From: Patescibacteria group bacterium | GTDB taxonomy: Bacteria; Patescibacteriota; JABMPQ01; JAQVVF01 | DNA: 64,000 nt | Direction of reading: 5' to 3' | Assembly: GCA_041662665.1 (NCBI GenBank) | Contig: JBAZSC010000001.1 | Span: forward strand, 257,511-321,510 | In this document: positions 4,423-49,923 of the stretch, piece after piece | How positions within the stretch are numbered: the stretch's first letter is position 1 | How the letters are laid out: each line of letters starts with the position of its first letter | Translations under genes and position numbers: made by a program | Notes under the pieces: generated by a model | Told to the model about the DNA's origin: nothing | The model's input: only the letters and a program-made list of their open reading frames with translations | Database searches by the model: none

Positions 4423-6783
4423 ATGCAACATATTCTTTGGTTCAACGAAATTAATATCAAAAATGTCAACGAGGTTGGCGGTAAAAACGCATCATTGGGC
4501 GAAATGTACCAAAATTTAACTAAGCAAGGAGTCAGAATTCCAAATGGCTTTGCAATCACAGCTGATGCTTATTGGTATTTTTTAGAGTCTGCCAAAATCA
4601 AAGACAAAATTAAAGAAATATTAAAAAATTTTTCCAAAAAAGATTTAGTTGCAAAAGGCACTTTAATTCGAGGCACGATTTTGAATGCTGATTTTCCAAA
4701 AGATTTAAAACAAGAAATAATTTCTGCTTACAAAAAATTAAGTTCCGAATCAAAAAAAGAAAATGTTGATGTTGCAGTTAGATCAAGCGCAACTGCTGAA
4801 GACGCGCCAGATGCTTCTTTTGCTGGACAGCAAGAATCATATCTCAATATTAAAGGTGAAAAAGAATTATTATTAGCCTGCAAAAGATGTATTTCATCTT
4901 TATTTACCGACCGCTCAATTTCATATCGCTTAGATAAAAAAATCAGTTTATTTAATGTTGCCTTGTCAGTTGGCGTTCAAAAAATGGTTCGTTCTGACAA
5001 AGCAAGTGCTGGCGTTATGTTTACTTTAGATCCAGAATCAGGTTTTAAAAATGTTATTGTAATAAATGGAGCTTTTGGATTAGGTGAAAACGTAGTTAAA
5101 GGCCGAGTCATTCCAGATGAATTTTGCGTCCACAAAGAATTATTGAAAAAAGGTTTCAAGCCAATCGTTGGAAAAACTTTAGGCAAAAAAGAAAAAACTT
5201 TAATTTATACCGACAATCCAAATTCACCAACAATAAACATTAAACTTAGCGATGAAAAAAGAAACATTTTTGTTTTAAATGACAAAGAAATTTTGGAATT
5301 AGCAAAATTCGGTTTGGCAATTGATGAGCATTACAAAAGACCAATGGATATCGAATGGGCAAAAGATGGCAATAATAATAAATTATATATCGTTCAAGCT
5401 CGTCCAGAAACAATTCACAAAAAAGAAAATGAAAAAGTTTTTAACGAATATTATTTAGCTAAAAAAGGCAAAGTCTTATTAGAAGGCGCTGCCATTGGTT
5501 CAAAGATAGGTCAAGGAAAAGTCCAATTAATTTTAGATGTCAAAAATATTGAAGAATTTAAAGAGGGCGAAATTTTAGTTACAACAAGCACTGATCCTGA
5601 TTGGGAGCCAGTAATGCGCAAAGCCAAAGCAATTATTACAGATACTGGTGGCAGGACATGTCATGCAGCAATCGTTTCACGCGAATTAGGAATTCCATGT
5701 ATTGTTGGTACTAACAAAGCCACAGAAATCTTGAAAGATAATCAAGAAATCACAGTCAGTTGTGCTGAAGGGGAGATTGGAAAGATTTATCAAGGATTAT
5801 TAGAAATAAAAACTCGTAAAATAGATTTAACAAATTTAAAAAAACCAAAGACAAAAATAATGATGAATGTCGGCGTGCCATTAGAGGCATTTGCGCTAAC
5901 TTCAATTCCAAATGATGGCATTGGTTTGGCTCGAGAAGAATTTATAATCGCTAATTCTATAAAAATTCATCCTAAAGCATTATTAAATTTTTCAACTTTG
6001 AAAGATAAAGATGCGAAAGAAAAAATAGCCGAAATTACAAAAAATTATAAAAATAAGTCAAAATTTTTTATTGATCATTTAGCTTGGGATATGGGCAGAA
6101 TTGCTGCAGCATTTTATCCAAATGATGTTATTGTTCGAACTTCAGATTTTAAGACTAATGAATACGCACAACTTTTAGGCGGAAAAGAATTTGAACCAAA
6201 AGAATCAAATCCAATGATTGGCTGGCGTGGAGCATCTCGCTATTATGATGAAAAATATAAAGATGCATTTGTTATGGAATGCGAGGCTTTAAAAAAATTG
6301 CGTGAAGAAATGGGATTTAGTAATGTAAAAATAATGATTCCTTTTTGCCGGACAGTAGATGAAGGCAAAAAAGTTTTAGCAATAATGAAAGAACATGGAC
6401 TAGAACGAGGTAAAAATAAATTAGAAGTTTACGTTATGGTTGAGATTCCATCTAACGTAATTCTAGCAGATCAATTTGCCAAAATTTTTGATGGTTTTTC
6501 AATTGGCACCAATGATTTAACTCAATTAACTTTAGGAGTTGATCGCGATTCTTCACTAGTTGCCCATGTTTATGACGAAAGAAATGAGGCTGTCAAAACT
6601 TTAGTTAAACAAGTGATCAAAGTTGCTCATGAAAATAAAATAAAAATTGGCATCTGTGGTGATGCGCCATCTACATTTCCAGATTTTGCTCAATTTTTAA
6701 TTGATAATAAAATTGATTCAATATCATTGTCGCCAGATGCAGTTTTTAAAACTACTTTAGAAATCCAGAAAAAAGAAAAATAA
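4423..6783 (+). CDS. ppsA: phosphoenolpyruvate synthase (pyruvate, water dikinase)
   Basis: 786 aa. N-terminus WFNEINIKNVNEVGGKNASLGEM is the PpsA ATP-grasp start. The phosphohistidine region GGRTCHAAIVSRELGIPCIVG and the C-terminal PEP-utilising domain are present. Confidence 0.9.
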   Translation: MQHILWFNEINIKNVNEVGGKNASLGEMYQNLTKQGVRIPNGFAITADAYWYFLESAKIKDKIKEILKNFSKKDLVAKGTLIRGTILNADFPKDLKQEIISAYKKLSSESKKENVDVAVRSSATAEDAPDASFAGQQESYLNIKGEKELLLACKRCISSLFTDRSISYRLDKKISLFNVALSVGVQKMVRSDKASAGVMFTLDPESGFKNVIVINGAFGLGENVVKGRVIPDEFCVHKELLKKGFKPIVGKTLGKKEKTLIYTDNPNSPTINIKLSDEKRNIFVLNDKEILELAKFGLAIDEHYKRPMDIEWAKDGNNNKLYIVQARPETIHKKENEKVFNEYYLAKKGKVLLEGAAIGSKIGQGKVQLILDVKNIEEFKEGEILVTTSTDPDWEPVMRKAKAIITDTGGRTCHAAIVSRELGIPCIVGTNKATEILKDNQEITVSCAEGEIGKIYQGLLEIKTRKIDLTNLKKPKTKIMMNVGVPLEAFALTSIPNDGIGLAREEFIIANSIKIHPKALLNFSTLKDKDAKEKIAEITKNYKNKSKFFIDHLAWDMGRIAAAFYPNDVIVRTSDFKTNEYAQLLGGKEFEPKESNPMIGWRGASRYYDEKYKDAFVMECEALKKLREEMGFSNVKIMIPFCRTVDEGKKVLAIMKEHGLERGKNKLEVYVMVEIPSNVILADQFAKIFDGFSIGTNDLTQLTLGVDRDSSLVAHVYDERNEAVKTLVKQVIKVAHENKIKIGICGDAPSTFPDFAQFLIDNKIDSISLSPDAVFKTTLEIQKKEK

Positions 6784-12222: not shown

Positions 12223-12296
12223 TTGCGGGGGGCGGATTTGAACCGCCGACCTTCAGGTTATGAGCCTGACGAGCTTCCAAGCTGCTCTACCCCGCG
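12223..12296 (-). tRNA. initiator tRNA-fMet (anticodon CAT)
   Basis: Reverse complement CGCGGGGTAGAGCAGCTTGGAAGCTCGTCAGGCTCATAACCTGAAGGTCGGCGGTTCAAATCCGCCCCCCGCAA. It has a C1:A72 mismatch, a TTCAAAT T-loop and near-identity to E. coli tRNA-fMet. Confidence 0.9.
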
Positions 12297-12360
12297 CCGT
12301 GTCCGCCGATTTATCTGCCGAAGCTTTAGCATAGGCAGAAGCTTTAGCGAAGGCGGAATA
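12297..12360. repeat. family B repeat block (two GAAGCTTTAGC units with GGCGG/CCGCC stems)
   Basis: gtgTCCGCCgatttatctgccGAAGCTTTAGCataggcaGAAGCTTTAGCgaaGGCGGAatac. Confidence 0.6.
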
Positions 12361-12405
12361 CATATATTATATATTAAACAAATAAAAAAGCAAGTTAAGT
12401 ACTTG

Positions 12406-14007
12406 CTATAGGTGCGATCGCTTGATCATGGCGTATCTCTCCATTGCTTCAACCAAGATAACAGGCAACAACTCCAGATGATCCATCCAAATGTATTCAG
12501 AAGTTCCATGAATATTCTGTGCTCCATTCCACATGTTTGGTCCAGGCAAATCTGGCAAATCCATATTCGCTATGCCAACATCTGTACCACCTCGAGCATC
12601 AAATTCTTTCATGATCATATCAAACATTGCCATCGCTTCACGCAATGGCTCCAGTACCCAAGGATGAGCCTGAATTGCATACTTGATATTTCGGTAATAC
12701 TTTTTCTTGTTAGTCAAAACTTCCAAAAGTCCAGAAAAATGATCATTTGTTTTCAGATCATCTGCCAGTTTACAGAGCAGTGCTACTAGCTGTTCAGCTT
12801 CCTCTTCATCAAATGTCCTTGGAATAGAATTCACCACAACCTTTTCCGGATTTTCCATCTTCACGCTATCAACCCAGCAAAATGACTGCTTATCCTTGCT
12901 CCTCCATGGCGGTACTGTATTATGGTGAACTGCCGACACGTAATAACACGCAGCAAGCAAAGCAGGCCAGACTTGAAATTCTTTCTCGCCAGAATATTCC
13001 GAAATAATATATTCAAGACCAACATTCAAAGCATCAGCTTCTCGCGTAAAGCTCTTCAACAAATTAACACTAATGCATGCTTTGTCAAAGAAAATATCAA
13101 CTTCAGATTTCACAGTTGACAAACTCTTGATCTGAATATAGAAACCAAGCTTTTTTGTGTCCAATACTTTTCTGACAAAATGCGACGCTGCATACTTGGC
13201 ATCAGCCAGATTACCGCCATCTAGTCCAGGATGAGCGCTTCTTCCAGTAAAGACCAAAGACATCTTTGTATTAACTCTGTCTTTGCTAACTTTAATGCCT
13301 TTGCTTTCAAAAGTTGCTGTTACCTTATTGCCGATGAAACAACCAACATCAACGATCGGTGGTTTTCCGCCATCAACTGTCAACAAAACATCGCGGTGGC
13401 GATCGGGCAACATGTTCGCATTGAATATGCCTTGCTCTTCATCAGGAAAGAAAAGAAGCTCAATTGGTCCATGCGGATGCTCTTCTTCATCGCTCAACAA
13501 TCTGGCAACTGCTTCCATAATTCCAGCCAATCCAGCTTTACAGTCAGCACCAAGCAAAGAGTCTCCACTACTTGTGATGATTCGCTGACCAAAACGATGC
13601 TCTCGATTCTTGCCATCGTCAAACAATACAACCTTTTTGCCTGTCTCTGGATCTGCGAGTGGGAGCTCAATTGGCTTGCCATCAAATCGATGAATCAACG
13701 GCTTGACATCTCCAGAAGCATCTGGAGCAGTATCAAAGTGTGCTGACAAAGTTACAACAACAGCAGCATTAAAACCAGGTGTTGCTGGAATCAAACAATC
13801 CAAAATACAAGTATCACTCAAATGCGGCTTCAGACCCATTGCTTCCAATTCAGATTTGACGAGTCTTGCCAATGTCCATTGTCCTTCGCTTGATGGTGAA
13901 GTTTCTGATTCGCAAGATTGAGTATTAATTCGAACACAGTCCAAAAAACGATTTACAACCGGTGACCACATTCCAAACATCGGATCTCTTTCGTCAACTT
14001 CGATCAT
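12406..14007 (-). CDS. M20-family metallopeptidase, peptidase T (tripeptidase)-like; GC-elevated gene
   Basis: HFDTAPDASGDV, SLLGADCKAGLAGIMEA, LLFFPDEEQG and FDARGGTDVG...NIHGTSEYI match PepT/M20B metal-binding blocks. GC is about 45% against a 30% background. GAGGAGGAAGAGAG lies immediately upstream of the ATG, with the hairpin ACGCTCCTA-AGG-TAGGAGCGT upstream of that. Confidence 0.6.
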   Translation of the reverse strand: MIEVDERDPMFGMWSPVVNRFLDCVRINTQSCESETSPSSEGQWTLARLVKSELEAMGLKPHLSDTCILDCLIPATPGFNAAVVVTLSAHFDTAPDASGDVKPLIHRFDGKPIELPLADPETGKKVVLFDDGKNREHRFGQRIITSSGDSLLGADCKAGLAGIMEAVARLLSDEEEHPHGPIELLFFPDEEQGIFNANMLPDRHRDVLLTVDGGKPPIVDVGCFIGNKVTATFESKGIKVSKDRVNTKMSLVFTGRSAHPGLDGGNLADAKYAASHFVRKVLDTKKLGFYIQIKSLSTVKSEVDIFFDKACISVNLLKSFTREADALNVGLEYIISEYSGEKEFQVWPALLAACYYVSAVHHNTVPPWRSKDKQSFCWVDSVKMENPEKVVVNSIPRTFDEEEAEQLVALLCKLADDLKTNDHFSGLLEVLTNKKKYYRNIKYAIQAHPWVLEPLREAMAMFDMIMKEFDARGGTDVGIANMDLPDLPGPNMWNGAQNIHGTSEYIWMDHLELLPVILVEAMERYAMIKRSHL

Positions 14008-14490
14008 CTCTCTTCCTCCTCTCTCGTTGTGACAAAGAACAACGCTCCTACCTTAGGAGCGTTATATCAGAATATAATTAAATTATAATTTCGTCAACTT
14101 ATTTCGGTCCCAAAAAATATTTCAGCAATGGCAAAAAAGCATAAAAAATAAATGCTATAATTGCGACCATAATTAAATAAACTCTTAAAATTTTTGCTTC
14201 TTCTAACATTTGACCCAAAGACTAATTACATAAATCAACGTAAACAACAAAATAATTGTTGAACAGGCAAAAGTTAATAATAATTTTTCAGTAATGTCCA
14301 TAACTTTAGTGATTAGTAAATAAGTAATCAGTAACTAGTAGATATCTATATTATAAATAATATTTAAAAAGATGGCAACCTTTTAAAGATAGTTAATATT
14401 TGTTAAAATAAACGAGTAGCAAGTAGAAAGCAGTATGTAGCTGGCAACTTTCTACTTTCTACATTCTACTCGCTACTAATAACAAAAATC

Positions 14491-15736: not shown

Positions 15737-16384
15737 ATGATCACTGCAATAATTTTTGACATGAATGGGGTAATAATAAATGATGAAGCCATTCATGAAT
15801 TAGCTTTTAAAGAAGTTTGTAAAAAATACAATATTATTTTAACGTCTCAAGGCTACAAGGATTTATGCATGGGCAAAACTGATGAGCAAGGTTTTATTGA
15901 AATAATTAAAAAATACAAATTAGATAATGTTAAAATAAGTAATTTAGTTGAACAAAAATCAACAAAATATTTAGAATTAATTCCAAAAAATATCAAAAGT
16001 TATCCAGGAGTTATTGATCTAATAAAAAAACTTCATAAAAAATTTATTTTAGCTTTAGCATCTAGTTCTAGTCGCCAAGAAATTGAAATGGTTTTGAATT
16101 ATTTTAAAATTAAAAAATTATTTAAAATAATTATTAGCGCTGATGATATTTCAAAAAGCAAGCCAGACCCAGAACCTTATCTTTTAACTACCAAAAAAAT
16201 TAACCAAAAACCAGAAAATTGTTTAGTTATTGAAGATTCAAAAAGTGGAATAATGTCAGCAAAAAGAGCTGGTATGAAATGTATTGCCATAACAACAACA
16301 CATAATGAAAAAGAATTAGTCGGTGCTGATGTTATCATAAATAAATTTTCAGAAATTACCGAAAAAATGATTCAAAATGTTTAA
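15737..16384 (+). CDS. HAD-superfamily hydrolase (subfamily IA, beta-phosphoglucomutase-like)
   Basis: DxD motif I IIFDMNGVII, motif II ALASSSS, and motif III-IV K...EDSKSG. Confidence 0.7.
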   Translation: MITAIIFDMNGVIINDEAIHELAFKEVCKKYNIILTSQGYKDLCMGKTDEQGFIEIIKKYKLDNVKISNLVEQKSTKYLELIPKNIKSYPGVIDLIKKLHKKFILALASSSSRQEIEMVLNYFKIKKLFKIIISADDISKSKPDPEPYLLTTKKINQKPENCLVIEDSKSGIMSAKRAGMKCIAITTTHNEKELVGADVIINKFSEITEKMIQNV

Positions 16385-16396
16385 AAAATAGCAATT

Positions 16397-16489
16397 TCTA
16401 CCCAGCTTTAGCTGAGGGGTGTTGGAGCTTTAGCTCCAGCGAACGAATAGGGCTAAAGCCCTGCGACCCCTTGGCTAAAGCCAGGTAGA
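16397..16489. mobile_element. MITE-like element (93 bp) with about 21-bp terminal inverted repeats; copy 1
   Basis: TIRs TCTACCCAGCTTTAGCTGAGG ... CCTTGGCTAAAGCCAGGTAGA. The interior is made of GGAGC-ttta-GCTCC and GGGC-taaa-GCCC hairpins. A second copy with the same TIRs and a different interior is at 49927-50033. Confidence 0.55.
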
Positions 16490-16505
16490 AAATAAATAAA
16501 ATCTT

Positions 16506-17324
16506 ATGCCCGAAAAACCACAAATAGAATTACAAGATATTCAACAAAATCCTGAACAAAAATCTGAAACAGGTTTAGAAATTGTAAAAACTCCAGAATC
16601 AGAACAATTTGTTGAACATGTCAATGAAATTCATGAAGCAGTACAACGTGATAGGAAAGTTACATATGGCCAAGTTGCAGATTTAAGAAAAGATTTAGAA
16701 GGATTTAAATTAGATGTTTGTGGCGAGCAAATGACTTTGGCAGAAATCAGAGAAATTCCAGATTTCGGATATAATTATGAAATTTGGAAATCTATAATGG
16801 AAGGAAATATTTTTTTACATAACCAAGTTACTGGTCTTATTCCTAACGTAACTCGAAAGTTAGTTGATGAAAATAATAAAAAAAACGAAAAGATCAGTAA
16901 TCAGGATGATTGGAAAGCTTTATATTTTGATTCTTTAAAAAAAATTTCACCTAAGATAGCAAAGGAATTTAGAAGTCTTAAGTCAGGAATCTATTTGAGT
17001 ACATTTACAGAACTTTCCGATGAAGTTATATTCGAGTTGTCCCATTCAGCTAGTTTATTTATTTCTTTAAGTCATCTAGTATCATTATCTGATCAGCAAG
17101 CAGAATATTTGTCTCAATTTCAAGGTAGGCTCAATTTAAACGGTGTCAATTCTTTATCGGACAATGCTGCGCGATTTATCGGGCAACGTGGTTCTTATAC
17201 TTGGTTAGATAGTCTAGTCCATATCTCTGATAATGGATTGAAATTTTTAGGTAAAGGGAGAATCGATCTATCTCCAGAGTTGGGAAAAAGATTAAAGAAA
17301 TTAAAAGCTGAACAAAATGCTTAA
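16506..17324 (+). CDS. paralog family P (conserved about 95-aa N-domain plus RI-type LRR-like about 25-aa repeats), member 1
   Basis: N-domain PEKPQIELQDIQQ..ETGLEIVKTPESEQFVEH.NEIHEA....K.TYGQVADLRKDLE is shared by five genes. C-terminal repeats follow L..L.SLSD..A..LS...G.L.LN...SLSD.AA. Confidence 0.6.
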   Translation: MPEKPQIELQDIQQNPEQKSETGLEIVKTPESEQFVEHVNEIHEAVQRDRKVTYGQVADLRKDLEGFKLDVCGEQMTLAEIREIPDFGYNYEIWKSIMEGNIFLHNQVTGLIPNVTRKLVDENNKKNEKISNQDDWKALYFDSLKKISPKIAKEFRSLKSGIYLSTFTELSDEVIFELSHSASLFISLSHLVSLSDQQAEYLSQFQGRLNLNGVNSLSDNAARFIGQRGSYTWLDSLVHISDNGLKFLGKGRIDLSPELGKRLKKLKAEQNA

Positions 17325-17375
17325 AGATTTTAACTTACAATAACGCCAAGCCGTCATAAAAAATAAATTAAAATT

Positions 17376-18239
17376 ATGTCCGAAAAACCACCAATAGAAT
17401 TAAAAGATATCGCCCAAGAATCAGAACCAAAATCTGAAACAGGTTTAGAAATTGTTGAAACTCCAGCATCAAAACAATTTGTTGAACATGCCAATGAAAT
17501 TCATGAAGCAATAGAACATGATAAAAAAATTACATATGGCCAAGTTGCAGATTTAAGAAAAGATTTAGAGCAATTTAAATTTGATGTATGTGGTGAGCAA
17601 ATGACTATTGCAGAAATAAAACAAATACCAGATTTTCAACATAATTATGAAATTTGGAAAAAAATAATGTCTGGAGAATTAATTAGTCGATGGAGCCAAA
17701 ATGAAGAAGATCTTACTTATCTTTTGCCAAAGGTGGCACAAGTTCTAGTTGAAGAATATAATAAAAAAAATGAAGAAACTTTCAAAATACATGATTATGG
17801 CGTTGAAGATCTTATGGACTTAAAGCTAAGCAACATCAAAAGAATCACTCCTGATACAATAAAAAATTTTAAAGATTTTAAAGCTAATATTTTTTTAGAT
17901 GGTTTGACCGAAATATCTGACGAATCAATGCTCGAATTATCAAAATCTTCAAGTTACCTTATTTCATTATCAAGCTTAACGTCTTTATCGGACAAACAAG
18001 CAGAATATTTATCTCAATTCAATGGCGGTAGATTATACTTAAATAGTATAAAATCACTTTCAGATTATGCTGCAAATAAATTTGCGCACAGCAAAGTTAC
18101 GTACGTATTATTAAGAGGTGTAGAAACTATTTCCGATTCTGCTCTTTTGCAGTTAGAAGGAACAAAAGTTGTTCTATCTGATACACAAAAAGAAAGGCTA
18201 AAAAGTTTAAAAGCCAAACAAAATGCTTCAAGATCTTAA
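17376..18239 (+). CDS. paralog family P, member 2
   Basis: About 85% nucleotide identity to member 1 over the first 300 nt. The same LRR-like C-terminal repeats are present. Confidence 0.6.
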   Translation: MSEKPPIELKDIAQESEPKSETGLEIVETPASKQFVEHANEIHEAIEHDKKITYGQVADLRKDLEQFKFDVCGEQMTIAEIKQIPDFQHNYEIWKKIMSGELISRWSQNEEDLTYLLPKVAQVLVEEYNKKNEETFKIHDYGVEDLMDLKLSNIKRITPDTIKNFKDFKANIFLDGLTEISDESMLELSKSSSYLISLSSLTSLSDKQAEYLSQFNGGRLYLNSIKSLSDYAANKFAHSKVTYVLLRGVETISDSALLQLEGTKVVLSDTQKERLKSLKAKQNASRS

Positions 18240-18282
18240 TCTAGAACAAACGCCAAGCCGTCATAAAAAATAAATTAAAACT

Positions 18283-18921
18283 ATGCCAGAACAACCATCG
18301 CAAGTAGAATTAAAAGATATTCAACAAACGAAAGAAACAGAATCTGAAACAGGTTTAGAAATTGTTAAAACTCCTGAATCAGAACAATTTGTTGAACATG
18401 CCAATGAAATTCATGAAGCAATGCAAGCTGATGGGAAAATAACTGCTGGCCAAGTTGCAGATTTAAGAAAAGATTTAGAAGGATTAAAATATGATTTTTA
18501 CGGAGAACAATTATCAATTGCCGAAATCAGGCAAATCCCAGATCTTCAACATAATTTAAAAATTTGGCAAGAAATTTCTAATGGAAAATTTCGTAATTAT
18601 AAGGAATTAACTTATTTAACTCCAGAAATTGCTCAGAAAATTGTTTATCCCGCCTCAATCAAAAGAGTCGGTCACGCACCTATTCCACTTATCGATTTTC
18701 CACCCAGAGATTTATATTTAAACAACTTAAAAACATTATCTGTCGAATCGGCAAGGATATTGTTGAGGAGATTGTCAACAGGTGATCGAATACTTTCTCT
18801 TCAAGGTTTAGTAGATTTCCCTGAAGAAGAATTAGGATTATTAGATGATCCAAATATTCATTTGTCCCGAGAGCTTACATTAAAGTTGATTGAAAAAAAA
18901 GAAGAGATGGGTTTAATTTAA
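18283..18921 (+). CDS. paralog family P, member 3 (shorter, divergent C-terminus)
   Basis: Shares the N-domain with members 1 and 2. The stop lies 3 nt before the helicase ATG. Confidence 0.55.
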   Translation: MPEQPSQVELKDIQQTKETESETGLEIVKTPESEQFVEHANEIHEAMQADGKITAGQVADLRKDLEGLKYDFYGEQLSIAEIRQIPDLQHNLKIWQEISNGKFRNYKELTYLTPEIAQKIVYPASIKRVGHAPIPLIDFPPRDLYLNNLKTLSVESARILLRRLSTGDRILSLQGLVDFPEEELGLLDDPNIHLSRELTLKLIEKKEEMGLI

Positions 18922-27902: not shown

Positions 27903-27978
27903 AACCCGCCTTCGCTCCTCGTCATTTGGAGCTACGGCGGGCAGGCAAAAAAAACAAGACCTAAAAAGTCTTGTTTTG
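27903..27978. terminator. family B nested hairpin followed by a bidirectional terminator hairpin
   Basis: CCCGCCttcGCTCCtcgtcatttGGAGCtacGGCGGG, then CAAGACctaaaaaGTCTTGtttt, sitting between convergent pheT and the DHH-like gene. Confidence 0.5.
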
Positions 27979-28066
27979 TATTAGAAAAAGTATTCGCTGT
28001 ATTCGAAAATTTATTAGAGTGAGACCAAAAAAAAGACCGACGTAAATCGGTCAAAAAAGGTGCAAC

Positions 28067-29689
28067 TTATTCTGTCACTGCAATTGATGGAATTTCATCA
28101 GATCCGCGATCTGAAGTCATCTGGAAAAAGATCATCATTGCGAGCGATTGCTTGTCAGAGGTCAGGCTGTGGTAGAATTCACGCCAAGCCTTGCCTTGCT
28201 GTGAAGCATTTCGCATCTCAATGATTTCTTCAATCTGTGTTTGCAATTCTTGCTTTCCGGAAAGCATCTGATTGATGAACGTATCACGACGCTCTTCAAT
28301 CAAATCTTCGACTACAGAAGCAAGATAATCAAAATCCACAACATTCGAATCAACATGAAGACAAAAATCTCGATCGTCAGTATAGACCTCGAGCTCAATC
28401 TCGGGATAATGAGCTCTGATCCTAGCGACGATTTCTGCAGTATCCAAAAGGTCAACGCTCTGGAAGCCGGTGTTATAGATCACGAGCTGATTACGCTCTT
28501 TGTGACCAGTAACAACGAAATCCACGCGCTTTTTTCCAATTGGATACAAATCATTTGGTTCAATGTAAGGAGGCTTGCTGAAAAAGAATCTTGCAGTCTG
28601 TCCATTTACTCTGGACTGACTGAAATCTCCAACAAAATAGCTGATGCCATAACGGTTTACATAGCGACCCTTCTGCGATTCATTCAAGTTATAGCCAAAC
28701 ATTTCTCGAACTGAAAAGAAAGCTTCGATGCAGTAAAAAGCAGCTTGAACAGATTCTGCATAGAAGGCATGATCTCTTGAGCCGCCTGGTGTTACGCGAT
28801 AATTCATCCCTCGCATCAGGTTAGTGATGCCATAGAGATTATTCATCTCGTAATGAGGCCTGCCATCAAAAGGTCTGCCGTTGTCTTTTGCATCAATGAA
28901 ATCAGTCATGATTTGGATATGCTCGAAATTCGGAAGCTTAGTCAAGCGATCATTGTGAGCTCTGAATACCAGTCCAGTTGCAGACCAAGGCTGGTAGTAG
29001 AAAACTCTTCTGCCCTTCTGAAATTCTTCAGTACTGTAAGGGATATATTCATCTCCAATGCCCTTGCAGATAACAAGAGTCTGATCATCATATTCAGGGA
29101 AATGTCCATCATCATCTACGAATTCAACAAATACTTTGTCACGATCGAAAGAGAAAAGTTTGAAACTTTCGATCATTTTGTTCTTTACTGCAGACAGTCG
29201 CTTTGTTCTCAATGAGTTATCATTCAAAACAAAAACAACTCTCTTTGCATCTTCATTTGTTACTGTCTTAAGATTGGCATGATGATCATAATGAAACACT
29301 CTTTGTCCAGCCTTGAACTTTTCAGCAGTCCATGGGTCGAACTTGCATCCTGTATCAAGGTTAATGATCATTACGCGCGATCTTTTGACCGTGTTTCGAG
29401 CTACTGAAATTTCTGACTTTCCATCTGATTCTTCTTCATCATCAACATATGAAAGAAAACGTCCGAGTCCTGCATGGAAAAATCCATATTCAGTGTATGT
29501 CTCTCCGTTTTTCACAAACAACAAAATAATTCTAGCATCCATATTCGACAAACCAAAAGCTCGGCAAAACATGTCAAATGCACCTGCAACATCTCGATCT
29601 GGTGAGACATGTCCAACGAGAAGAATGAAATCCAAATGCAAATAATAAAACAAGTCTTTCAGTGCCATCTCGTCCTCCTTTGGATTCAA
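28067..29689 (-). CDS. DHH-family phosphoesterase-like protein with long uncharacterised C-terminal region; GC-elevated gene
   Basis: N-terminal motifs HLDFILLVGHVSPDRDVAGAFDM (DHH motif I, with PDRD in place of PDGD), VMIINLD and VFHYDHHAN (DHH motif III). A possible degenerate DHHA1 GGSRDH is present. GC is about 45%. AAAGGAGGACGAG lies immediately before the ATG. Confidence 0.45.
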   Translation of the reverse strand: MNPKEDEMALKDLFYYLHLDFILLVGHVSPDRDVAGAFDMFCRAFGLSNMDARIILLFVKNGETYTEYGFFHAGLGRFLSYVDDEEESDGKSEISVARNTVKRSRVMIINLDTGCKFDPWTAEKFKAGQRVFHYDHHANLKTVTNEDAKRVVFVLNDNSLRTKRLSAVKNKMIESFKLFSFDRDKVFVEFVDDDGHFPEYDDQTLVICKGIGDEYIPYSTEEFQKGRRVFYYQPWSATGLVFRAHNDRLTKLPNFEHIQIMTDFIDAKDNGRPFDGRPHYEMNNLYGITNLMRGMNYRVTPGGSRDHAFYAESVQAAFYCIEAFFSVREMFGYNLNESQKGRYVNRYGISYFVGDFSQSRVNGQTARFFFSKPPYIEPNDLYPIGKKRVDFVVTGHKERNQLVIYNTGFQSVDLLDTAEIVARIRAHYPEIELEVYTDDRDFCLHVDSNVVDFDYLASVVEDLIEERRDTFINQMLSGKQELQTQIEEIIEMRNASQQGKAWREFYHSLTSDKQSLAMMIFFQMTSDRGSDEIPSIAVTE

Positions 29690-29905
29690 AAATTGAGGGT
29701 ACGGTCCTGTCCCTTCGAACGTATTATATTAGCATATCTTTTTTATTTTGTCAATGAAATGCTGATGATTTGTCTCAAATAAGCCAAAATGAGAATTTAA
29801 TATTAATAATATTTATGCACAATTTGAGAGACCATTCTTGCAGAATTTATATATATTTGCTATACTTAAATTGTTTAGAAAACACATATTTTTTGTATTA
29901 AATTT

Positions 29906-31966
29906 ATGGCTATAAAGAAAGACACCAAAAAAAACGCTCCTAAAAATCCATCAGAAAGCTATGGAGCTTCTTCAATTACAGTTTTAAAAGGCCTTGATCC
30001 TGTCCGCAAACGTCCAGGTATGTATATTGGCGGTACTGGCATTGAAGGCCTTCATCATTTAATTTGGGAAGTTGTAGATAACTCAATTGATGAAGCTATG
30101 GCTGGATATTGTAAAAATATTAAAGTTACTTTATTCGAAGGTAACAAAGTTACAGTTTATGATGATGGCCGTGGTATTCCAGTCGAAATTCACAAAGCTA
30201 CCAAGAAATCAACACTTGAAACTGTCTTGACTGTTTTGCACGCTGGTGGAAAATTCGGTGGTGGCGGTTATAAAGTTTCTGGTGGCTTGCATGGTGTTGG
30301 TGTTTCTGTTGTTAATGCATTATCACAATATTTGAAAGCTGAAGTTACAAGAGATGGTTATCTTTGGGAGCAAGAATATAAACGAGGCAAGGCACAAGGA
30401 AAAATTAAAAAAGTAAAAAAAGCTTCTGGCACTGGCACAGCAATTACTTTTGATCCAGATCCAGAAATTTTTCCAAAGATAGAATTTGATTGGAAAACAA
30501 TTGTTACTCATTTGCGCCAACAAGCTTATTTAACAAAAGGCGTCAAAATTTCCATCACTGATGAAAGAAAAGGACATGAATTAGCGCCAAATATTCCACG
30601 CGCTCTGACTTTTTATTTTGAAGGTGGAATTTTATCATATGTAAAATTTTTAAATCGCACTGAAAAAGTAGTTCATCCAAATCCTTTTTATATTGAAAAA
30701 GCAAAAGGCGATTGTTTGGTAGAAGTAGCGTTGCAATATACTGAAGAGATCAAAGGTATTGAAATGACTTTCGCCAATAATATTTATACTCCAGAAGGTG
30801 GTACTCATCTGATGGGTTTCAGAACTGCTCTAACTCGTGTTATTAATGATTATGCTCGAAAAAATGGTTACCTCAAAGAAAAAGAAGACAATTTAACTGG
30901 TGATGATGTTCGTGAAGGACAGACAGCAGTTGTTTCTCTAAAACTTCCAGAGCCTCAATTTGAAGGCCAAACAAAAGCAAAATTAGGCAATTCCGAAATT
31001 AGGCCAATTGTTAGTTCAATTGTTTATGAATATTTCTCTCAATTCTTAGAAGAGCATCCGCAAGATGCGCGAGCTATTATGGCAAAAACTTTGCTAGCTT
31101 GCAAAGCCAGACTCGCTGCTAAAGCTGCCAAAGAAACAGTAATTAGAAAAGGCATTATGGAAGGTCTGACTTTGCCAGGAAAATTAGCCGATTGTTCATC
31201 AAGAAAACCAGAAGAATCTGAATTATACATTGTTGAGGGCGACTCCGCTGGTGGTTCTGCCAAACAAGGTCGTGATCGAAATTTCCAAGCCATTCTTCCT
31301 CTTCGCGGTAAAATTTTAAATGTCGAAAGAGCAAGAATTGACAAAATGCTAGGTTCAAAAGAAATCAAAGCTTTGATTATTGCTATGGGTATGGGAGTTG
31401 GTGAAGAAAAAGAAATTGAAAAAATGCGTTATCACAGAATAATTATCATGACTGATGCTGATGTTGATGGCGCTCACATCAGAACTTTGCTATTAACTTT
31501 TTTCTATCGCTATTATGCAGAAATAATCGAAAAAGGCTATCTTTATATTGCTCAACCGCCATTATATCGAGTTGAAAAGAATAAAAAAGTCGATTATGCC
31601 TATACTGATCAAGATAAAGAAAGAATCTTAAAAGAAATTGAAAAAACATCTGTTGCCAAAAAAACTAAAAAAAGCAAAATAGAAAAAGCTGGATTTACTG
31701 TTAAAGAATTGGAAACAGGTGAAGAAAATGGTGAAGAAAAAGTCGCTGGCGTTAATATTCAGCGTTACAAAGGTTTGGGTGAAATGAATCCTGAACAATT
31801 ATGGGAAACAACAATGGATCCAAAAAATCGCGTTATGCTTCAAGTTAAAGTAGAGGACGCAGCAAAAGCTGATGAAACTTTTGATATTTTGATGGGCAAT
31901 GAAGTTGAGCCTCGCAAACGTTTTATTCAAACTCATGCTGCCAAAGTTAAAAATTTGGATATCTAA
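29906..31966 (+). CDS. gyrB: DNA gyrase subunit B (type IIA topoisomerase ATPase subunit)
   Basis: GHKL ATPase motifs LHHLIWEVVDNSIDEAMAG and GGLHGVGVSVVNALS. Toprim EGDSAGG and PLRGKILNVE, then C-terminal QRYKGLGEM. Confidence 0.88.
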   Translation: MAIKKDTKKNAPKNPSESYGASSITVLKGLDPVRKRPGMYIGGTGIEGLHHLIWEVVDNSIDEAMAGYCKNIKVTLFEGNKVTVYDDGRGIPVEIHKATKKSTLETVLTVLHAGGKFGGGGYKVSGGLHGVGVSVVNALSQYLKAEVTRDGYLWEQEYKRGKAQGKIKKVKKASGTGTAITFDPDPEIFPKIEFDWKTIVTHLRQQAYLTKGVKISITDERKGHELAPNIPRALTFYFEGGILSYVKFLNRTEKVVHPNPFYIEKAKGDCLVEVALQYTEEIKGIEMTFANNIYTPEGGTHLMGFRTALTRVINDYARKNGYLKEKEDNLTGDDVREGQTAVVSLKLPEPQFEGQTKAKLGNSEIRPIVSSIVYEYFSQFLEEHPQDARAIMAKTLLACKARLAAKAAKETVIRKGIMEGLTLPGKLADCSSRKPEESELYIVEGDSAGGSAKQGRDRNFQAILPLRGKILNVERARIDKMLGSKEIKALIIAMGMGVGEEKEIEKMRYHRIIIMTDADVDGAHIRTLLLTFFYRYYAEIIEKGYLYIAQPPLYRVEKNKKVDYAYTDQDKERILKEIEKTSVAKKTKKSKIEKAGFTVKELETGEENGEEKVAGVNIQRYKGLGEMNPEQLWETTMDPKNRVMLQVKVEDAAKADETFDILMGNEVEPRKRFIQTHAAKVKNLDI

Positions 31967-32035: not shown

Positions 32036-32380
32036 CTACCAATATAGTACAATTATCAAAGTATCAGAATCACCAAAGGTTTCAGGAATATCAAGCACTC
32101 CAGTGATCAGAAGATAGCATTTTTCTTCTTGAAAACCATCAATGTCATGCCAACAACAAACTCTGTTCGAAAAGCTCTCATCAGAAAAACAACCAATTGC
32201 GCATTCAGAATCATCTTCTAGATTTCCAGACCAAGCCTGCATTTCAAAAACGGGAAATTGTCCACAAGCACTTTCCATTTCATCTTCATCTTTATCAAAC
32301 ATTGCTTCAGAATTGTTAACAAAAGAACAAACCATCAAAATGCACATCACTGAAATCACCAAGAGCCCTGTTTTCCTCAT
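32036..32380 (-). CDS. small secreted Cys-rich acidic protein (signal peptide plus 6 Cys)
   Basis: N-terminus MRKTGLLVISVMCILMVCSFVNNSEA is a signal peptide. The mature part is D/E-rich with CG..C.IGC...CC.H...C. GAGGAGGAGGAAAAA lies immediately upstream of the ATG. GC is about 40%. Confidence 0.45.
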   Translation of the reverse strand: MRKTGLLVISVMCILMVCSFVNNSEAMFDKDEDEMESACGQFPVFEMQAWSGNLEDDSECAIGCFSDESFSNRVCCWHDIDGFQEEKCYLLITGVLDIPETFGDSDTLIIVLYW

Positions 32381-41006: not shown

Positions 41007-41104
41007 GATACACGCGCACCTTAGACAAACCGCCTACGCTCTGCGGAGCTTCCACCTTCGCTTACGCTTCGGTGGACAAGTCGGCGGTCGAGGGAGGAAA
41101 AGGG

Positions 41105-42121
41105 ATGACAGTAGCTCTCGAGAGAGTTAGTCTCGATGGACATGAACAGCATGGACAGACAAATTGGTGGCAGAGCTATACAGTAACTTTCGATTTGCTT
41201 TGCAAAGAATTTGGTCAAGAAAATCTTCCTGCTGGTTTGCCTCCAAGAATTTTTGTTGTTGACAGTGAAGCTGGACGCAGATTTTTGACTGGCCGTCATC
41301 TTTGGGGTTGGCGCAAGATTAAGCTGATTAAGGAAGTTACTCGTTCTTTGGTTCAGCCATTGGTTGATATTTTCAAAGAATCAAATGGCGAAGTAACACA
41401 GTTTGTTCCATTGAGCGGCGCTGATCCAATGAAAATCGGAAAGGCTTTGCATCATGCTTTGATTTATCCATTCACTGTTGCGCCAATGGCAACAGCATAT
41501 ATTGAAGCAGATCGAAAAGAACAGAAAGATGGTAGCTTCAAAGCAAGGGTCAGAAAACCTTTGAAGAAATTCCCGAAACATCCAGTCGCAGTCATTGTTG
41601 ACACATGTTGCGCCTCTGGTTCTACTCTTCAAGAAACTGTCCGAAGAATTATTGACTGGTACAAGACTGATAAGAAGCCATTGCGCAAGATTATTTTCTT
41701 TACTGCCTGCGGATCACTGGAAGCGCTTCAAGGAATCTGGGCATATTGTCAAAGAAGATGCATCGAATTCATTCCAGTTTTTTCTGTTGGTCTTCATCGA
41801 GTATTTGATGAACCTGGAGTTCTTGGCAAGAGATTTACTGATCTTTCGCCAATTTCGGAAACTGCAATAATGCCTGCCTCATTCATTCCATCAGCAAATG
41901 TTTATTTTCAAGAGAAACCAATGTGTGCTGTTGGCGATGTTGGGGACAGCTTGAGTATGAAATTCGAACTTTATCTTTTTGAAACACTTCGCGAGCTTGC
42001 AATCTTAAAAATGGACTTGAACCGTTCTCCTTGGTGTGAAATGAGAAGTCAAATCCCAACAACTGTTTACTTAAAATTGCAGTCTGAACATATTGGAGAA
42101 TTTTTGTACTATCGTCATTGA
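41105..42121 (+). CDS. hypothetical PRTase-fold protein (PRPP-binding loop motif); GC-elevated gene with GC-rich leader
   Basis: VAVIVDTCCASGSTLQETV matches the type I phosphoribosyltransferase PRPP loop. GC is about 48%. GAGGGAGGAAAAGGG precedes the ATG at 41105, preferred over the ORF-track start at 41072. An 80-nt GC-rich leader carries the hairpin CCACCttcgcttacgcttcGGTGG. Confidence 0.45.
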   Translation: MTVALERVSLDGHEQHGQTNWWQSYTVTFDLLCKEFGQENLPAGLPPRIFVVDSEAGRRFLTGRHLWGWRKIKLIKEVTRSLVQPLVDIFKESNGEVTQFVPLSGADPMKIGKALHHALIYPFTVAPMATAYIEADRKEQKDGSFKARVRKPLKKFPKHPVAVIVDTCCASGSTLQETVRRIIDWYKTDKKPLRKIIFFTACGSLEALQGIWAYCQRRCIEFIPVFSVGLHRVFDEPGVLGKRFTDLSPISETAIMPASFIPSANVYFQEKPMCAVGDVGDSLSMKFELYLFETLRELAILKMDLNRSPWCEMRSQIPTTVYLKLQSEHIGEFLYYRH

Positions 42122-48023: not shown

Positions 48024-48551
48024 ATGCAAAATTCTGGATTTCACAAATCAGCACCACCAATCAATATTCCTACTAATCAAAAACCAAATCTAGAATTTAA
48101 ATATCTGGAAACTGATAACAACAAGAAGCATCCCATTCTTGTTGTTTTACTTATCTTATTCTTCATTGCAATTTTAGTCGTTGCTTTCATTATTGCTTAT
48201 GATTTTTTTCAAAAAAATGAGCAAGCAAATTTAACTGCAGATTTATCAAATCAAGATATTGATGGTGATGGATTAACAACAATTGAGGAGCTAAAAAATG
48301 ACACTGATCAAAATCAATATGATTCAGATTTTGACAAAATGTCGGACGGCTGGGAAGTCAGAAACAATCTCAATCCAAAAGATTATCTTGATGCTACAAA
48401 AGATAATGATCAAGATGGATTAACAAATTTACAAGAATTGCAATATAATTCAAATCCAAATAATAAAGATACTGATAATGATGGCGTAAAAGACGGTGAT
48501 GAAGTTGCAAATAATTTAAACCCAAATGGTGATGGTAAAATCATTAAATAA
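48024..48551 (+). CDS. membrane-anchored protein with thrombospondin-type-3-like DxDxDG repeats (paralog of previous)
   Basis: TM helix ILVVLLILFFIAILVVAFIIAY, then DIDGDGLTTIEELKND, DNDQDGLTNLQELQYN and DTDNDGVKDGDE. Confidence 0.5.
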   Translation: MQNSGFHKSAPPINIPTNQKPNLEFKYLETDNNKKHPILVVLLILFFIAILVVAFIIAYDFFQKNEQANLTADLSNQDIDGDGLTTIEELKNDTDQNQYDSDFDKMSDGWEVRNNLNPKDYLDATKDNDQDGLTNLQELQYNSNPNNKDTDNDGVKDGDEVANNLNPNGDGKIIK

Positions 48552-49923
48552 AAATAAATTTTACTTTTTTGAAGCTATTTTAATTTTAGGATTAGCAATA
48601 TTTTTGCCAAAAATTTCTTTTGCAAAAATTCCATTCAATATTTTAGTTAGTACTGGTTTTGGAGTTAATCCACAATTGCACGAATTTTCAAATACTGGAA
48701 AAATTTCTAGCTATCTATCTGATCTCAAAAATTTACCAAGCAACAATAAAGGCATTAATTTAGCTTCCGGCGATGTTGATGGCGATGCTGTTGATGAAAT
48801 TATTGTTTCACAACGAGCCGGCGGAATTCCGCAAGTTTTTGTTTTTGAAAAAAATGGCAAATTAAAAATGGTTTTCAAACCTTATCCCTCAAATTCACAA
48901 ACTGGAATTAATATTGCAACAGGTGACGTTGATAAAGATGGCAAAGATGAAATAGTTACTGTTCCAGCTGAAGGCGGAGTTGCTTTAGTCAAAATTTATC
49001 GTTTTAACAAAAAACAAGAAATTATTAAAGAATTTAAAGCCTTTAGCAATGATAGCTGTGGAGCATCAGTTGCTGCTGGAGATATTGATCATGATGATAA
49101 AGATGAAATAATTGTTGGCAATGGTCCGAAATGTTCGCCAAAAATTCGTGTTTATGAATCAAATGGCGCAAGATTGCCTTTAGAATTTTATGCTTTTAAT
49201 CCAAATTTTCTAGGCGGAATAGATGTCGCAGCTGGCGATGTTGATAAAGATGGAATTGATGAAATCGGTACTTGCCAATCGCAACAACAAGCTTGGTGCA
49301 AGATTTATAAATACAAAAATAATACGCCTTTAATTGGATCCTGGCTAGCTTATAATAATTTTGAAGTTGGTGCCAGAATTGATTTCGCTGATTTAGATTC
49401 TGATGGACGAGACGAGGTTCTTACTGGAACAGCCCATGGCACTCCGCAAGTTCGTTTTTTTGAAGCATCTGGTTCGCCAATTAATATAAATTTTTATCCA
49501 TTTCCAAAAAATTATAATTCAGGAATTGATGTTGCGCCATTTTTTGCCAATAAAAAATCTCAAGAAAAAGTTATTTATGTTGAAGATGGAGATAGCGTTT
49601 ATCTAACAGATGGCCGAGAAATGCGCTATATTGGAGTCAATACACCAGAAGTTGGCAAGAAATTTTATGAAGAAGCAATTAATTTAAATAAAAGATTAGT
49701 CGAAAATAAAAATGTAATTTTAGAATATGATGTTGATCGCGAAGACCATATCGGCAGAGATTTAGCCTATGTTCATGTCGGCAAGAAATTCATCAATAAA
49801 ATTTTAGTTTCAAAAGGTTTAGCTAAAGTAGACACTTTCAAGCCAAATGTTAAATATAGATCAGTATTTAAAAAAGCCCAAGCAAGGGCTCAAAGAATGC
49901 ATCGAGGGATGTGGAGGAGGTGA
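48526..49923 (+). CDS. secreted FG-GAP/VCBS-like repeat protein fused to C-terminal staphylococcal-nuclease (SNase/thermonuclease) domain
   Basis: Signal peptide, then repeated G(D)VD.DG.DEI(IV) units (six or more). The C-terminal DGDSVYLTDGREMRYIGVNTPE...GRDLAYVHV...ARAQRMHRGMW matches the SNase fold. Confidence 0.6.
   Translation: MVMVKSLNKNKFYFFEAILILGLAIFLPKISFAKIPFNILVSTGFGVNPQLHEFSNTGKISSYLSDLKNLPSNNKGINLASGDVDGDAVDEIIVSQRAGGIPQVFVFEKNGKLKMVFKPYPSNSQTGINIATGDVDKDGKDEIVTVPAEGGVALVKIYRFNKKQEIIKEFKAFSNDSCGASVAAGDIDHDDKDEIIVGNGPKCSPKIRVYESNGARLPLEFYAFNPNFLGGIDVAAGDVDKDGIDEIGTCQSQQQAWCKIYKYKNNTPLIGSWLAYNNFEVGARIDFADLDSDGRDEVLTGTAHGTPQVRFFEASGSPININFYPFPKNYNSGIDVAPFFANKKSQEKVIYVEDGDSVYLTDGREMRYIGVNTPEVGKKFYEEAINLNKRLVENKNVILEYDVDREDHIGRDLAYVHVGKKFINKILVSKGLAKVDTFKPNVKYRSVFKKAQARAQRMHRGMWRR

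Follow-up and report, generated by a model that had tools for sequence, protein, structure and literature searches.

A rare DHH-superfamily protein of Patescibacteria with a duplicated insert and a C-terminal lobe of its own, encoded in a fixed slot between pheT and gyrB

Between pheT and gyrB in a 64,000-nucleotide stretch of the Patescibacteria contig JBAZSC010000001.1 (the whole of this stretch is called the window below) lies a minus-strand gene, 28067..29668, whose 533-amino-acid product, P0001, is deposited as 'hypothetical protein WC663_01515' of a Patescibacteria metagenome-assembled genome (MAG). The N-terminal lobe of P0001 (residues 1 to ~265-300) is a DHH-superfamily catalytic domain. 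The protein represents a DHH subfamily that is rare and restricted to Patescibacteria; it has a duplicated insert and a putative substrate lobe without known match, and it fails the C-domain tests for both DHHA1 and DHHA2. In our judgement it is likely that P0001 is a cytoplasmic, catalytically competent, divalent-metal-dependent DHH phosphoesterase, belonging to a tiny clade that is confined to the Patescibacteria, has a C-lobe of its own and is encoded by an accessory-type gene in a fixed slot. An earlier interpretation of the same DNA, made from its letters alone and called here the sequence-only reading, is referred to where the results bear on it.

The sole family matched by P0001 in Pfam was DHH (PF01368; E 0.0096, 16.6 bits, profile positions 2-80 of 125), which was also the best Pfam family in five of the six members searched. 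Weak Pfam matches of single family members to FUR and Mitoregulin were regarded as noise. NCBIfam gave no match for P0001, and phmmer with the whole protein found none in the PDB; a whole-protein profile retrieved from the PDB only DNA polymerase theta (E 0.022), which was rejected as a coincidence in a helical region. With a profile of the N-domain (alignment A3, from which the insert described below was removed) the Mn-dependent family II pyrophosphatases were matched at E 4.6e-5 to 1e-4. GH-x-x-P-D-R-D-V of P0001 aligns column for column with GHQNPDTDT of these enzymes, and SATGvVFR with their GSASSIVYR. A full-length model was built with AlphaFold2 from nine sequences (mean predicted local distance difference test, pLDDT, 69.5; predicted TM-score, pTM, 0.51; N-lobe mostly at pLDDT 75-90). 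When it was compared with the PDB by Foldseek, the top eight matches were all DHH enzymes (probability up to 1.0), led by the DHH domain of HAN (5yh1, E 1e-5), the phosphodiesterase (PDE) TM1595 of Thermotoga maritima (5o7f) and Bacteroides fragilis NrnA (3w5w), with Borrelia DhhP (9r7o) and NrN (9lq9-9lqc) among the further matches; the whole top set ranged from E 1e-5 to 6e-3. In the viral library BFVD, too, DHH phosphohydrolases stood at the top, and most of the top 17 were DHH enzymes. The DHH signal is beyond chance, given the agreement among members in Pfam, the profile E-value of 4.6e-5 and the two independent fold libraries. The placement of the N-terminal part in this superfamily, as proposed by the sequence-only reading, is borne out alike by Pfam (below its threshold), by the pyrophosphatase profile and by the fold of the predicted structure.

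The strings HVSPDRDVAGAFDM, NLDTG and YDHHAN were all found in the translation of the P0001 open reading frame (ORF). Motif I (residues 19-30, GHVSPDRDVAGA; 29579..29614, on the minus strand as are all parts of the gene given below) carries H20, D24 and D26, all invariant, with R25 as the x of DxD. The second Asp of this DxD had earlier been taken to be replaced by Arg; this was a misreading, since PDRD is an intact DxD with Arg at the x position, as follows from the pyrophosphatase alignment and the invariance of H20, D24 and D26 in 9/9 members. In the motif II region (residues 100-112, MIINLDTGCKFDP; 29333..29371) D105, G107 and D111 are invariant, and D105 stands in the context (I/V)-x-(L/F)-D-T-G at the end of a predicted strand (residues 99-104). 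In motif III (residues 124-130, VFHYDHH; 29279..29299) H130 is invariant, D128 is replaced by Asn in P0007 and P0010, and H129 by Glu in P0010 only. The rest of the domain (residues 229-265; 28874..28984) comprises the SATG helix, with S229 and T231 invariant, and a motif IV candidate, FIDAKDNG, in which the ligand would be either D259 (FIDAK, aligned by eye with the pyrophosphatase ISDT) or D262 (invariant in allele classes A-C, defined below). The DHH domain had been assigned to the first ~170 residues; its N-terminal placement stands, but the domain resumes past an insert of 95 residues and continues to ~265-300.

Ten residues (H20, P23, D24, D26, D105, G107, D111, H130, S229 and T231) are invariant in nine family sequences whose identity falls to 24%. 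Within allele class B the gene is under purifying selection, with a nonsynonymous divergence (dN) of 0.11-0.14, a fourfold-site divergence of 0.63-0.77 and a ratio of ~0.2. Judged from its sequence P0001 is therefore probably catalytically active, and an inactivated scaffold is unlikely because the ligands of motifs I to III are invariant (H20, D24, D26, D105 and H130 in all nine members) and selection within the allele class is purifying. The earlier suggestion of such a scaffold had its basis in the misread DxD and loses its footing with it.

Several observations weigh against the assignment of P0001 as an active DHH phosphoesterase. Its Pfam DHH score (16.6 bits) is not above the gathering threshold of 28.1 bits. 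The full-length model is of moderate quality only (pLDDT 69.5, pTM 0.51), and the Foldseek TM-scores are low (0.15-0.20 on the query), which is attributed to this moderate quality and to the two-lobe architecture with an extra insert. The Asp of motif IV is not securely placed, D259 being Asn in the ortholog P0006, and the Asp of DHH itself is Asn in P0007 and P0010. Furthermore, neither neighbouring genes nor named homologs gave a hint of the substrate.

The ~95-residue insert that interrupts the domain after motif III (residues 133-228; 28985..29272) is predicted to form a beta-alpha-beta-beta-alpha-beta unit (pLDDT 76-85). Allele classes A and C (P0001 and P0002, and the distantly related P0007, respectively) have it; the orthologs of class B, which are of the short form, do not. 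Its last 30 residues (196-225; 28994-29083), QTLVICKGIGDEYIPYSTEEFQKGRRVFYY, are a decayed copy of residues 98-127, RVMIINLDTGCKFDPWTAEKFKAGQRVFHY: the two segments align with a Smith-Waterman score of 60 as compared with 21.5 +/- 3.9 for shuffled sequences, none of 2000 shuffles reached 60, and the same duplication is found in P0002 and P0007. In the copy, Lys stands at the position of D105 and QPW replaces DHH. The insert is thus a second, decayed copy of the motif II-III unit.

The region beyond the DHH domain had been estimated at ~370 residues without assignment. It amounts to ~210-230 residues only, the remainder being the insert and the rest of the DHH domain. A linker of low model confidence (residues 268-323) contains GGSRDH (residues 295-300 in the 533-residue numbering; pLDDT <50), at which position the orthologs read GERTKKDD. 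GGGH was sought in all family members and found in none, GGSRDH being the only look-alike in P0001. The sequence-only reading was correct in reporting no clean GGGH and GGSRDH as the closest string, which itself is not a motif, as it is unconserved and situated in a disordered linker. The linker is followed by an alpha/beta module (residues 325-460; 28289..28696), which consists of three units of a beta-hairpin plus helix and occupies the place of DHHA1 or DHHA2. It holds the most conserved blocks of the family, DFSxSxVNGQTARxFFxKPPY (348-368) and Y429-x-D431-x-R433-D434-F435; the hairpin that is equivalent to the GGGH site reads Y-x-D-x-R-D-F. The protein ends with a three-helix bundle (residues 461-533; 28070..28288), which is the fastest-evolving segment of P0001 (dN within class B 0.18-0.34 vs 0.05-0.14 for the other segments). 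Modelled alone, the C-domain (residues 325-533) reached a pLDDT of 80.6 and a pTM of 0.69 and showed the same three beta-hairpin plus helix units and three-helix bundle.

With this model Foldseek found no significant match in the PDB, and no DHHA1, DHHA2 or pyrophosphatase C-domain was among the matches listed. Ribosome recycling factor, which resembles the C-domain in combining a small alpha/beta domain with a three-helix bundle, was not accepted as a homolog (E 0.01, probability 0.35). Pfam DHHA1 and DHHA2 did not match P0001, and an hhalign comparison of the C-lobe with DHHA1 segments of RecJ and GAN from the PDB gave a probability of 0.1%; the seed consensus with which these segments were harvested served as bait only. 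By eye, and on the predicted structure, the order of secondary-structure elements in the C-lobe fits a very divergent DHHA1. GGGH is the hallmark of the DHH/DHHA1 subfamily (GGH-x-x-AAG), and mutation of its His abolishes NrnA activity, whereas the DHH domain alone retains hydrolysis of pAp and of bis-p-nitrophenyl phosphate (PMC4081065). As the C-lobe of P0001 has no GGGH, its substrate is probably not bound in the way that NrnA and RecJ bind a nucleotide phosphate. The combination of a probably active DHH domain with a conserved C-lobe not recognisable as DHHA1 therefore suggests a phosphoesterase whose substrate would be held by a different kind of C-lobe. The distant relative P0010 (L006 10001-11491) has two tandem C-terminal alpha/beta modules (FIHDSGFCMYI and FLHRDEFCLYI). 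Both P0010 and P0011 have a His in the hairpin where the core clade has Asp431, an arrangement nearer to GGH.

About 13 relatives of P0001 were found in total, and all named sources are Patescibacteria MAGs. A word-indexed search of 5.8 billion proteins yielded six members. An exhaustive profile search of 1.84 billion representatives yielded seven at E <= 1e-3, of which one was a repeat-protein false positive and three were distant relatives or fragments (P0007, P0010 and P0011); a second and a third word-indexed search with broader alignments added only P0012 and P0013. With so few relatives among this number of proteins the family is not a common housekeeping NrnA or RecJ. In six independent assemblies from different samples the gene is located between pheT and gyrB on the opposite strand, and all close relatives whose sequence extends over this slot have the gene there. 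The P0010 and P0011 genes are also lone opposite-strand genes among housekeeping genes. At all loci the neighbours have housekeeping functions (pheS/pheT, gyrB, secE, nusG, ruvA, femAB and others), and the gene occurs in an accessory-like fashion across genomes. No tRNA, Rfam element or convincing repeat was found to flank the P0001 gene. A metagenome scan anchored on pheT for further alleles of the slot gave one distant locus only, which was of no use.

At least three allele classes can be distinguished, A (P0001 and P0002), B (P0003-P0006 and the allele of locus L010) and C (P0007), which are 35-56% identical to each other. Between the window and the class B loci L001, L003 and L010 the flanking DNA is 80-88% identical, and at the protein level PheT is 86-89% and GyrB 85-93% identical, whereas the target protein is 54-56% identical and differs by the insert. 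In the comparison with L005 (P0007) the target is 37% identical and the flanks are 82-85%. The intergenic stretch on the terminator side is 90% identical between the window and L003. The target protein thus diverges 3-5x faster than the flanking housekeeping genes: pheT dN is 0.068-0.078 among the window, L001 and L003, which are about equidistant, while target dN, at 0.14 for the pair L001-L003, rises to 0.35-0.39 when either is compared with the window. No internal breakpoint was found in the coding sequence (CDS) of the target, along which the excess of divergence is uniform.

As a check on the apparent saturation of synonymous divergence (dS) by the Nei-Gojobori method (NG86), divergence was recomputed at the fourfold sites of conserved residues with normalization for composition. 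An earlier within-class NG86 dS of 1.2-1.3 proved to be an overestimate, as fourfold sites show no excess within a class: in class B the target lies at 0.63-0.77 and pheT at 0.51-0.81, which is equal. Alleles of class B thus share the inheritance of their flanks and mutate at a normal rate. Between classes, divergence of the target reaches 1.26-1.66 as compared with 0.58-0.88 for pheT, an excess of ~1.4-2.9x that is real, if smaller than NG86 had suggested, and for which the bootstrap intervals do not overlap in the pairs window-L003 and window-L010 and do overlap in window-L001. For class C the target lies at 1.35 or more and pheT at 0.78-0.89. There was no sign of positive selection within an allele class. 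In the simplest reading the allele classes had arisen before the surrounding genomes diverged, or recombination within the conserved flanks exchanges them between genomes; alternatively, both dN and the synonymous rate have been accelerated in a lineage-specific manner. Exchange among Patescibacteria has been reported to be common (PMC12455944).

The gene is also deviant in composition. Its GC content is 40.6% for the 533-residue CDS and 40.8% for the 540-residue ORF, which corrects an earlier figure of 45%, in a window of 32% GC. GC at third positions (0.383) is the highest among the 55 ORFs (median 0.209, median absolute deviation 0.021) of what is a streamlined segment with pheS, pheT, gyrB, secE, nusG, gatB, thrS, dnaE, pyruvate kinase and pyruvate phosphate dikinase. 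The anomaly is common to all alleles and consists in a depletion of A at third positions (A3), with A3 at 0.17-0.24 as compared with 0.36-0.53 in host genes on both strands, ribosomal protein genes included, while T at third positions is the same as in the host. TTA accounts for 0/36, 0/37, 0/34 and 0/39 of the Leu codons in the target alleles of classes A and B and for 50-59% in their own flanking genes (in the window, 0/36 in P0001 and 50% in the flanks). CTA occurs 0-1 times in each of these alleles and five times each in pheT and gyrB of the window. For Lys, AAG makes up 52-77% of codons in the alleles and 9-22% in their flanking genes (65% and 9%, respectively, in the window).

This dialect survives synonymous change. 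At 13 of the 16 Leu columns that are conserved in four alleles there has been turnover among TTG, CTG, CTT and CTC, yet neither TTA nor CTA occurs in any of the 64 codons, as compared with 132/216 TTA in pheT. The Lys codons AAA and AAG flip freely at shared sites. Changes between A and G at third positions therefore do occur, and TTA appears to be specifically excluded from the target alleles. The dialect is maintained and not merely an unameliorated remnant; codon-choice selection or repeated import from unsampled donors may be the cause. A strand effect or high-expression bias was rejected as its cause, since A3 is 0.36-0.53 in host genes of the minus strand and in those for ribosomal proteins. 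For the window, upkeep of an antisense ORF was also rejected, as its allele has 11 in-register TCA codons, that is 11 antisense stops, and synonymous shuffles give equally long open frames. In the class B alleles (L001 10001-11326, L003 4432-5727 and L010 15964-17292) the antisense frame in codon register is almost free of stops, with 1-3 stops and open runs of 285-393 codons, and is similar after synonymous shuffling. These frames are open because TTA, CTA and TCA are nearly absent, and they probably result from the avoidance of A3 rather than from an overlapping gene. The description of the gene as compositionally foreign thus holds with regard to its third positions, but it does not extend to a recent acquisition, as no close relative with coverage of this slot has it without the gene. 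A recent genomic island was rejected on the same ground: the composition is deviant, but the slot is shared by all sampled relatives, and no tRNA, Rfam element or convincing repeat was found at its flanks.

The signals around the gene are consistent with its expression. The ORF runs without interruption from 28067 to 29689 on the minus strand. The sequence-only reading had given it 540 residues from a TTG start, which places the Shine-Dalgarno sequence AAGGAGG (29674..29680) inside the protein. P0001 has 533 residues, since the spacing of this sequence (5 nt upstream of ATG 29668), the N-termini of all orthologs (M-x-x-KDLFY) and an identical 533-residue database entry all fit a start at ATG 29668; the GGAGG consensus that had been noticed is indeed present at 29680-29674. 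A promoter-like TTGACA-17-TAATAT with an extended -10 TG (29726..29754) was the best of seven consensus matches in the region; it is a consensus match only, and such sites are as numerous in shuffled controls. A GC-rich, intrinsic-terminator-like hairpin, GACCGA...TCGGTC followed by T8 (28035..28052, minus strand), lies 15 nt past the stop codon. A palindromic 12-bp hairpin with an A-run and a T-run at its sides (27951..27977), between pheT and the P0001 gene, is probably a terminator for pheT and/or bidirectional. With both neighbours, pheT and gyrB, on the plus strand, P0001 is encoded by a lone minus-strand gene with hairpins nearby, much as had been described, and it appears to be a stand-alone transcription unit with its own Shine-Dalgarno sequence, promoter-like site and terminator-like hairpin. 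The ORF is real. A 19-nt A-rich direct repeat of 84% identity (28016-28034 and 29916-29934) brackets the transcription unit; it was judged to be due to chance, being A-rich with one copy inside the gyrB CDS.

In the mechanism that we favour for P0001, the N-lobe would carry the full set of ligands (H20, D24, D26, D105, H129/H130 and D259 or D262), and the insert after motif III would represent a tandem duplication of the motif II-III beta-alpha-beta unit that has lost its catalytic residues. By analogy with DHHA1 and DHHA2 enzymes the C-lobe may close over the metal site and supply substrate specificity. The chemistry would be two-metal-ion hydrolysis, with a phosphoester or phosphoanhydride bond cleaved in a small substrate that probably derives from a nucleotide. 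The gene would be of the accessory type and retain its non-host codons; in its fixed slot it would persist in three or more deeply diverged allele classes, with selection within a class being purifying. A specialised nucleotide, oligoribonucleotide or polyphosphate hydrolase is plausible.

Alternatively, P0001 could be a lineage-specific replacement of a housekeeping nanoRNase/pAp phosphatase, an analogue of NrnA that completes the breakdown of oligonucleotides, whether scavenged or from turnover, to mononucleotides in a salvage-dependent bacterium. The closest structures include NrnA (3w5w) and the pApA/short-oligonucleotide PDEs TM1595 and DhhP, the slot is filled in every close relative that covers it, and no canonical DHH/DHHA1 gene was found in the 64-kb window or at any fetched locus. 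However, the window is a 64-kb part of a contig at least 645 kb long, and elsewhere there could be a canonical nrnA, orn or recJ. A predicted FG-GAP and staphylococcal-nuclease (SNase) protein of the window might supply oligonucleotides; it has 465 residues (48526-49923, plus strand) and is a plausible extracellular scavenging nuclease. On the other hand, the absence of GGGH and of a recognisable DHHA1 in the C-lobe, a divergence 3-5x faster than that of the flanks into classes of 35-56% identity, and the restriction of the family to a handful of genomes, nanoRNA degradation being universal, make this alternative unlikely, if worth keeping in mind.

A second possibility is that P0001 is an enzyme of conflict (defence, counter-defence or symbiont-host), for instance one that degrades a nucleotide second messenger in the manner of NrN, which acts on SAM-AMP, or of ring nucleases, with its diversity being kept by frequency-dependent selection. 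This would accord with deeply diverged alleles at one slot between flanks that are 80-88% identical, with a fourfold-site excess (~1.4-2.9x pheT) that appears between classes and not within them, with the accessory-like distribution and foreign codon dialect, and with the presence of NrN and cyclic-dinucleotide PDEs among the structural matches. The sequence-only reading had also pointed to cyclic-oligonucleotide signals in conflict systems. Nevertheless, in eight distinct neighbourhoods examined no cyclase, CBASS (cyclic-oligonucleotide-based antiphage signalling), CRISPR/Cas, toxin or other defence gene was present. PADLOC gave 0 families at E <= 1 for five family members, PHROGs gave only noise for the family, and no viral homolog was found in BFVD or by a scan of viral contigs; two viral-contig matches were spurious, being a phage structural protein that merely contains 'QRVFHYD'. 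Selection within a class is, moreover, purifying. A role in conflict is therefore improbable on present evidence, and the context that had been proposed for it was not found.

A bolder form of this idea can be given only a slender chance. P0001 would then be a new DHH subfamily with a previously unseen substrate-lobe fold, which selection keeps free of TTA and CTA and poor in AAA, within a genome of 31% GC in which half of the Leu codons are TTA. Its translation would be insulated from the host's decoding of A-ending codons, for example when tRNAs or A-rich codons are attacked or limiting, and its alleles would be exchanged at a fixed recombination slot, as those of a balancing-selected enzyme which, in conflict with phage or between symbiont and host, acts on a new substrate derived from a nucleotide.

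That P0001 is an inactivated DHH scaffold, which like Cdc45 would only bind a ligand or partner, is very unlikely. The insert within the DHH domain recalls the Cdc45 insertion, the duplicated unit has no catalytic residues, and P0007 and P0010 have NHH and NEH instead of DHH; but DxD is intact and the invariance of H20, D24, D26, D105 and H130 in 9/9 sequences is hard to explain without metal binding. Its lone position on the opposite strand, deviant composition and nearly stop-free class B antisense frame might also lead one to take the gene for an artefact (a chimera of the assembly, a pseudogene in decay, or a spurious ORF whose plus-strand counterpart is the real gene). This view is effectively refuted: six or more independent assemblies, made from different samples, have the gene in this slot with its frame intact, the sense frame is under purifying selection, the motifs are conserved, Shine-Dalgarno, promoter and terminator signals are present, and the window allele has 11 antisense stops.

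In DHH enzymes it is the C-terminal lobe (DHHA1 or DHHA2) that sets substrate specificity. In P0001 a DHH domain that is conserved and under selection is joined to an equally conserved but unrecognisable C-lobe, which points to a substrate or binding mode new to the superfamily, in a host group whose nucleotide economy depends on salvage. If it were an ordinary nanoRNase with a divergent DHHA1, it would just be a remote family member. The locus offers a compact natural case in which to study selection on synonymous codons and the ways in which a streamlined genome retains and exchanges its accessory genes. It is unusual in that a slot between two essential genes is fixed while the classes that fill it are 35-56% identical between flanks of ~85%, and in that the codon dialect survives synonymous turnover; the allele-class pattern and the maintained dialect are its most unexpected features.

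Other variable features were observed in the surrounding DNA. The gyrB of the window (686 residues) has no intein (site ~31254/31259), whereas that of L001 (1119 residues; L001 6312-9671) contains one (Pfam Intein_splicing) and that of L003 (842 residues; L003 1636-4164) a shorter one at the same insertion point. Another variable slot is situated between gyrB and secE; there the window has a 114-residue Cys-rich ORF (32036-32380, minus strand) whose N-terminus resembles a signal peptide and which has no match in Pfam, and L001 has three small ORFs of 117, 113 and 96 residues (5025-6290). Four successive ORFs (215, 272, 287 and 212 residues) at 15737-18921 are absent from L010, where the flanks are joined directly. 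They are partly paralogous, one L009 segment matching 16361-16804, 17357-17669 and 18264-18649, and look like a variable paralog array of host-normal composition. Two further genes share features of composition with the P0001 gene. One encodes a divergent M20/M28-type peptidase-like protein of 533 residues (12406-14007, minus strand, within 12297-14095; Pfam Peptidase_M20, E 2.6e-9), with 42% GC and TTA in 0/52 Leu codons. Its region is a lineage-specific insertion, whose flanks meet within 75-255 bp in L010, L009 and L011, and it adjoins tRNA-Met 12223-12296 of a tRNA-Met/Met/Asp cluster. The other is a lone gene for 349 residues (41072-42121, plus strand) with 41.5% GC, a P0001-like codon dialect (TTA 2/32, AAG 44%) and very weak phosphoribosyltransferase-like Pfam matches (E 0.03-0.09). 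Finally, a 629-residue AAA_5 ATPase (dynein-related/MoxR/McrB-like; 56678-58567, plus strand) is followed by a gene for 643 residues without Pfam match (58660-60591, plus strand); the two could constitute a two-gene system.

Among known systems the NrnA-type nanoRNases/pAp phosphatases and the short-oligonucleotide and cyclic-dinucleotide PDEs of the DHH/DHHA1 subfamily (3w5w, 5o7f and 9r7o) are the best structural matches to P0001. They are likewise two-lobed with an N-terminal DHH domain, and they share with P0001 motifs I-III, H-x-x-P-D-x-D-x-x-G-[AS], D-x-G and DHH, followed by the S-A-T/S helix. P0001 differs from them in having no GGGH, a C-lobe that is not DHHA1 by fold or profile, the duplicated 95-residue insert past motif III and a helical tail of 75 residues; it has 533 residues as compared with 320-351 in the matched chains, at an identity of ~10%. 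The best match by sequence profile is with the family II Mn pyrophosphatases of DHH/DHHA2 type (1wpn, 2iw4, 1k23, 1wpp and 1k20), whose GHQNPDTDTI aligns with GHxxPDxDxI/V and whose GSASSIVYR aligns with the SATGxVFR helix. This match is limited to the N-domain, mainly motif I and the next 80 residues; P0001 has no DHHA2 by Pfam or fold search, and the distance from DHH to the SAT helix is not the same.

RecJ and the archaeal GAN and HAN have the DHH fold in common with P0001, and the HAN domain is its top Foldseek match. Motif II of RecJ is of the D-x-G type, as in P0001, but P0001 lacks their OB fold and GGH-x-AAG DHHA1 signature, in line with the hhalign probability of 0.1%. The CRISPR-associated NrN, crystallised with SAM-AMP and SAH-AMP (9lq9-9lqc), matches the DHH fold at E 1.6e-3 to 6e-3 and is an example of a DHH enzyme in a conflict system; its chains have 245-252 residues as compared with 533, and P0001 has no CRISPR or defence neighbours in any genome examined and no PADLOC match. 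Cdc45, a catalytically inactive eukaryotic protein of the DHH superfamily, has an insertion in its DHH domain. The DHH domain of P0001 is likewise interrupted by an inserted segment, but P0001 has no detectable specific similarity to Cdc45 and, in contrast to an inactive protein, keeps all ligands of motifs I-III invariant.

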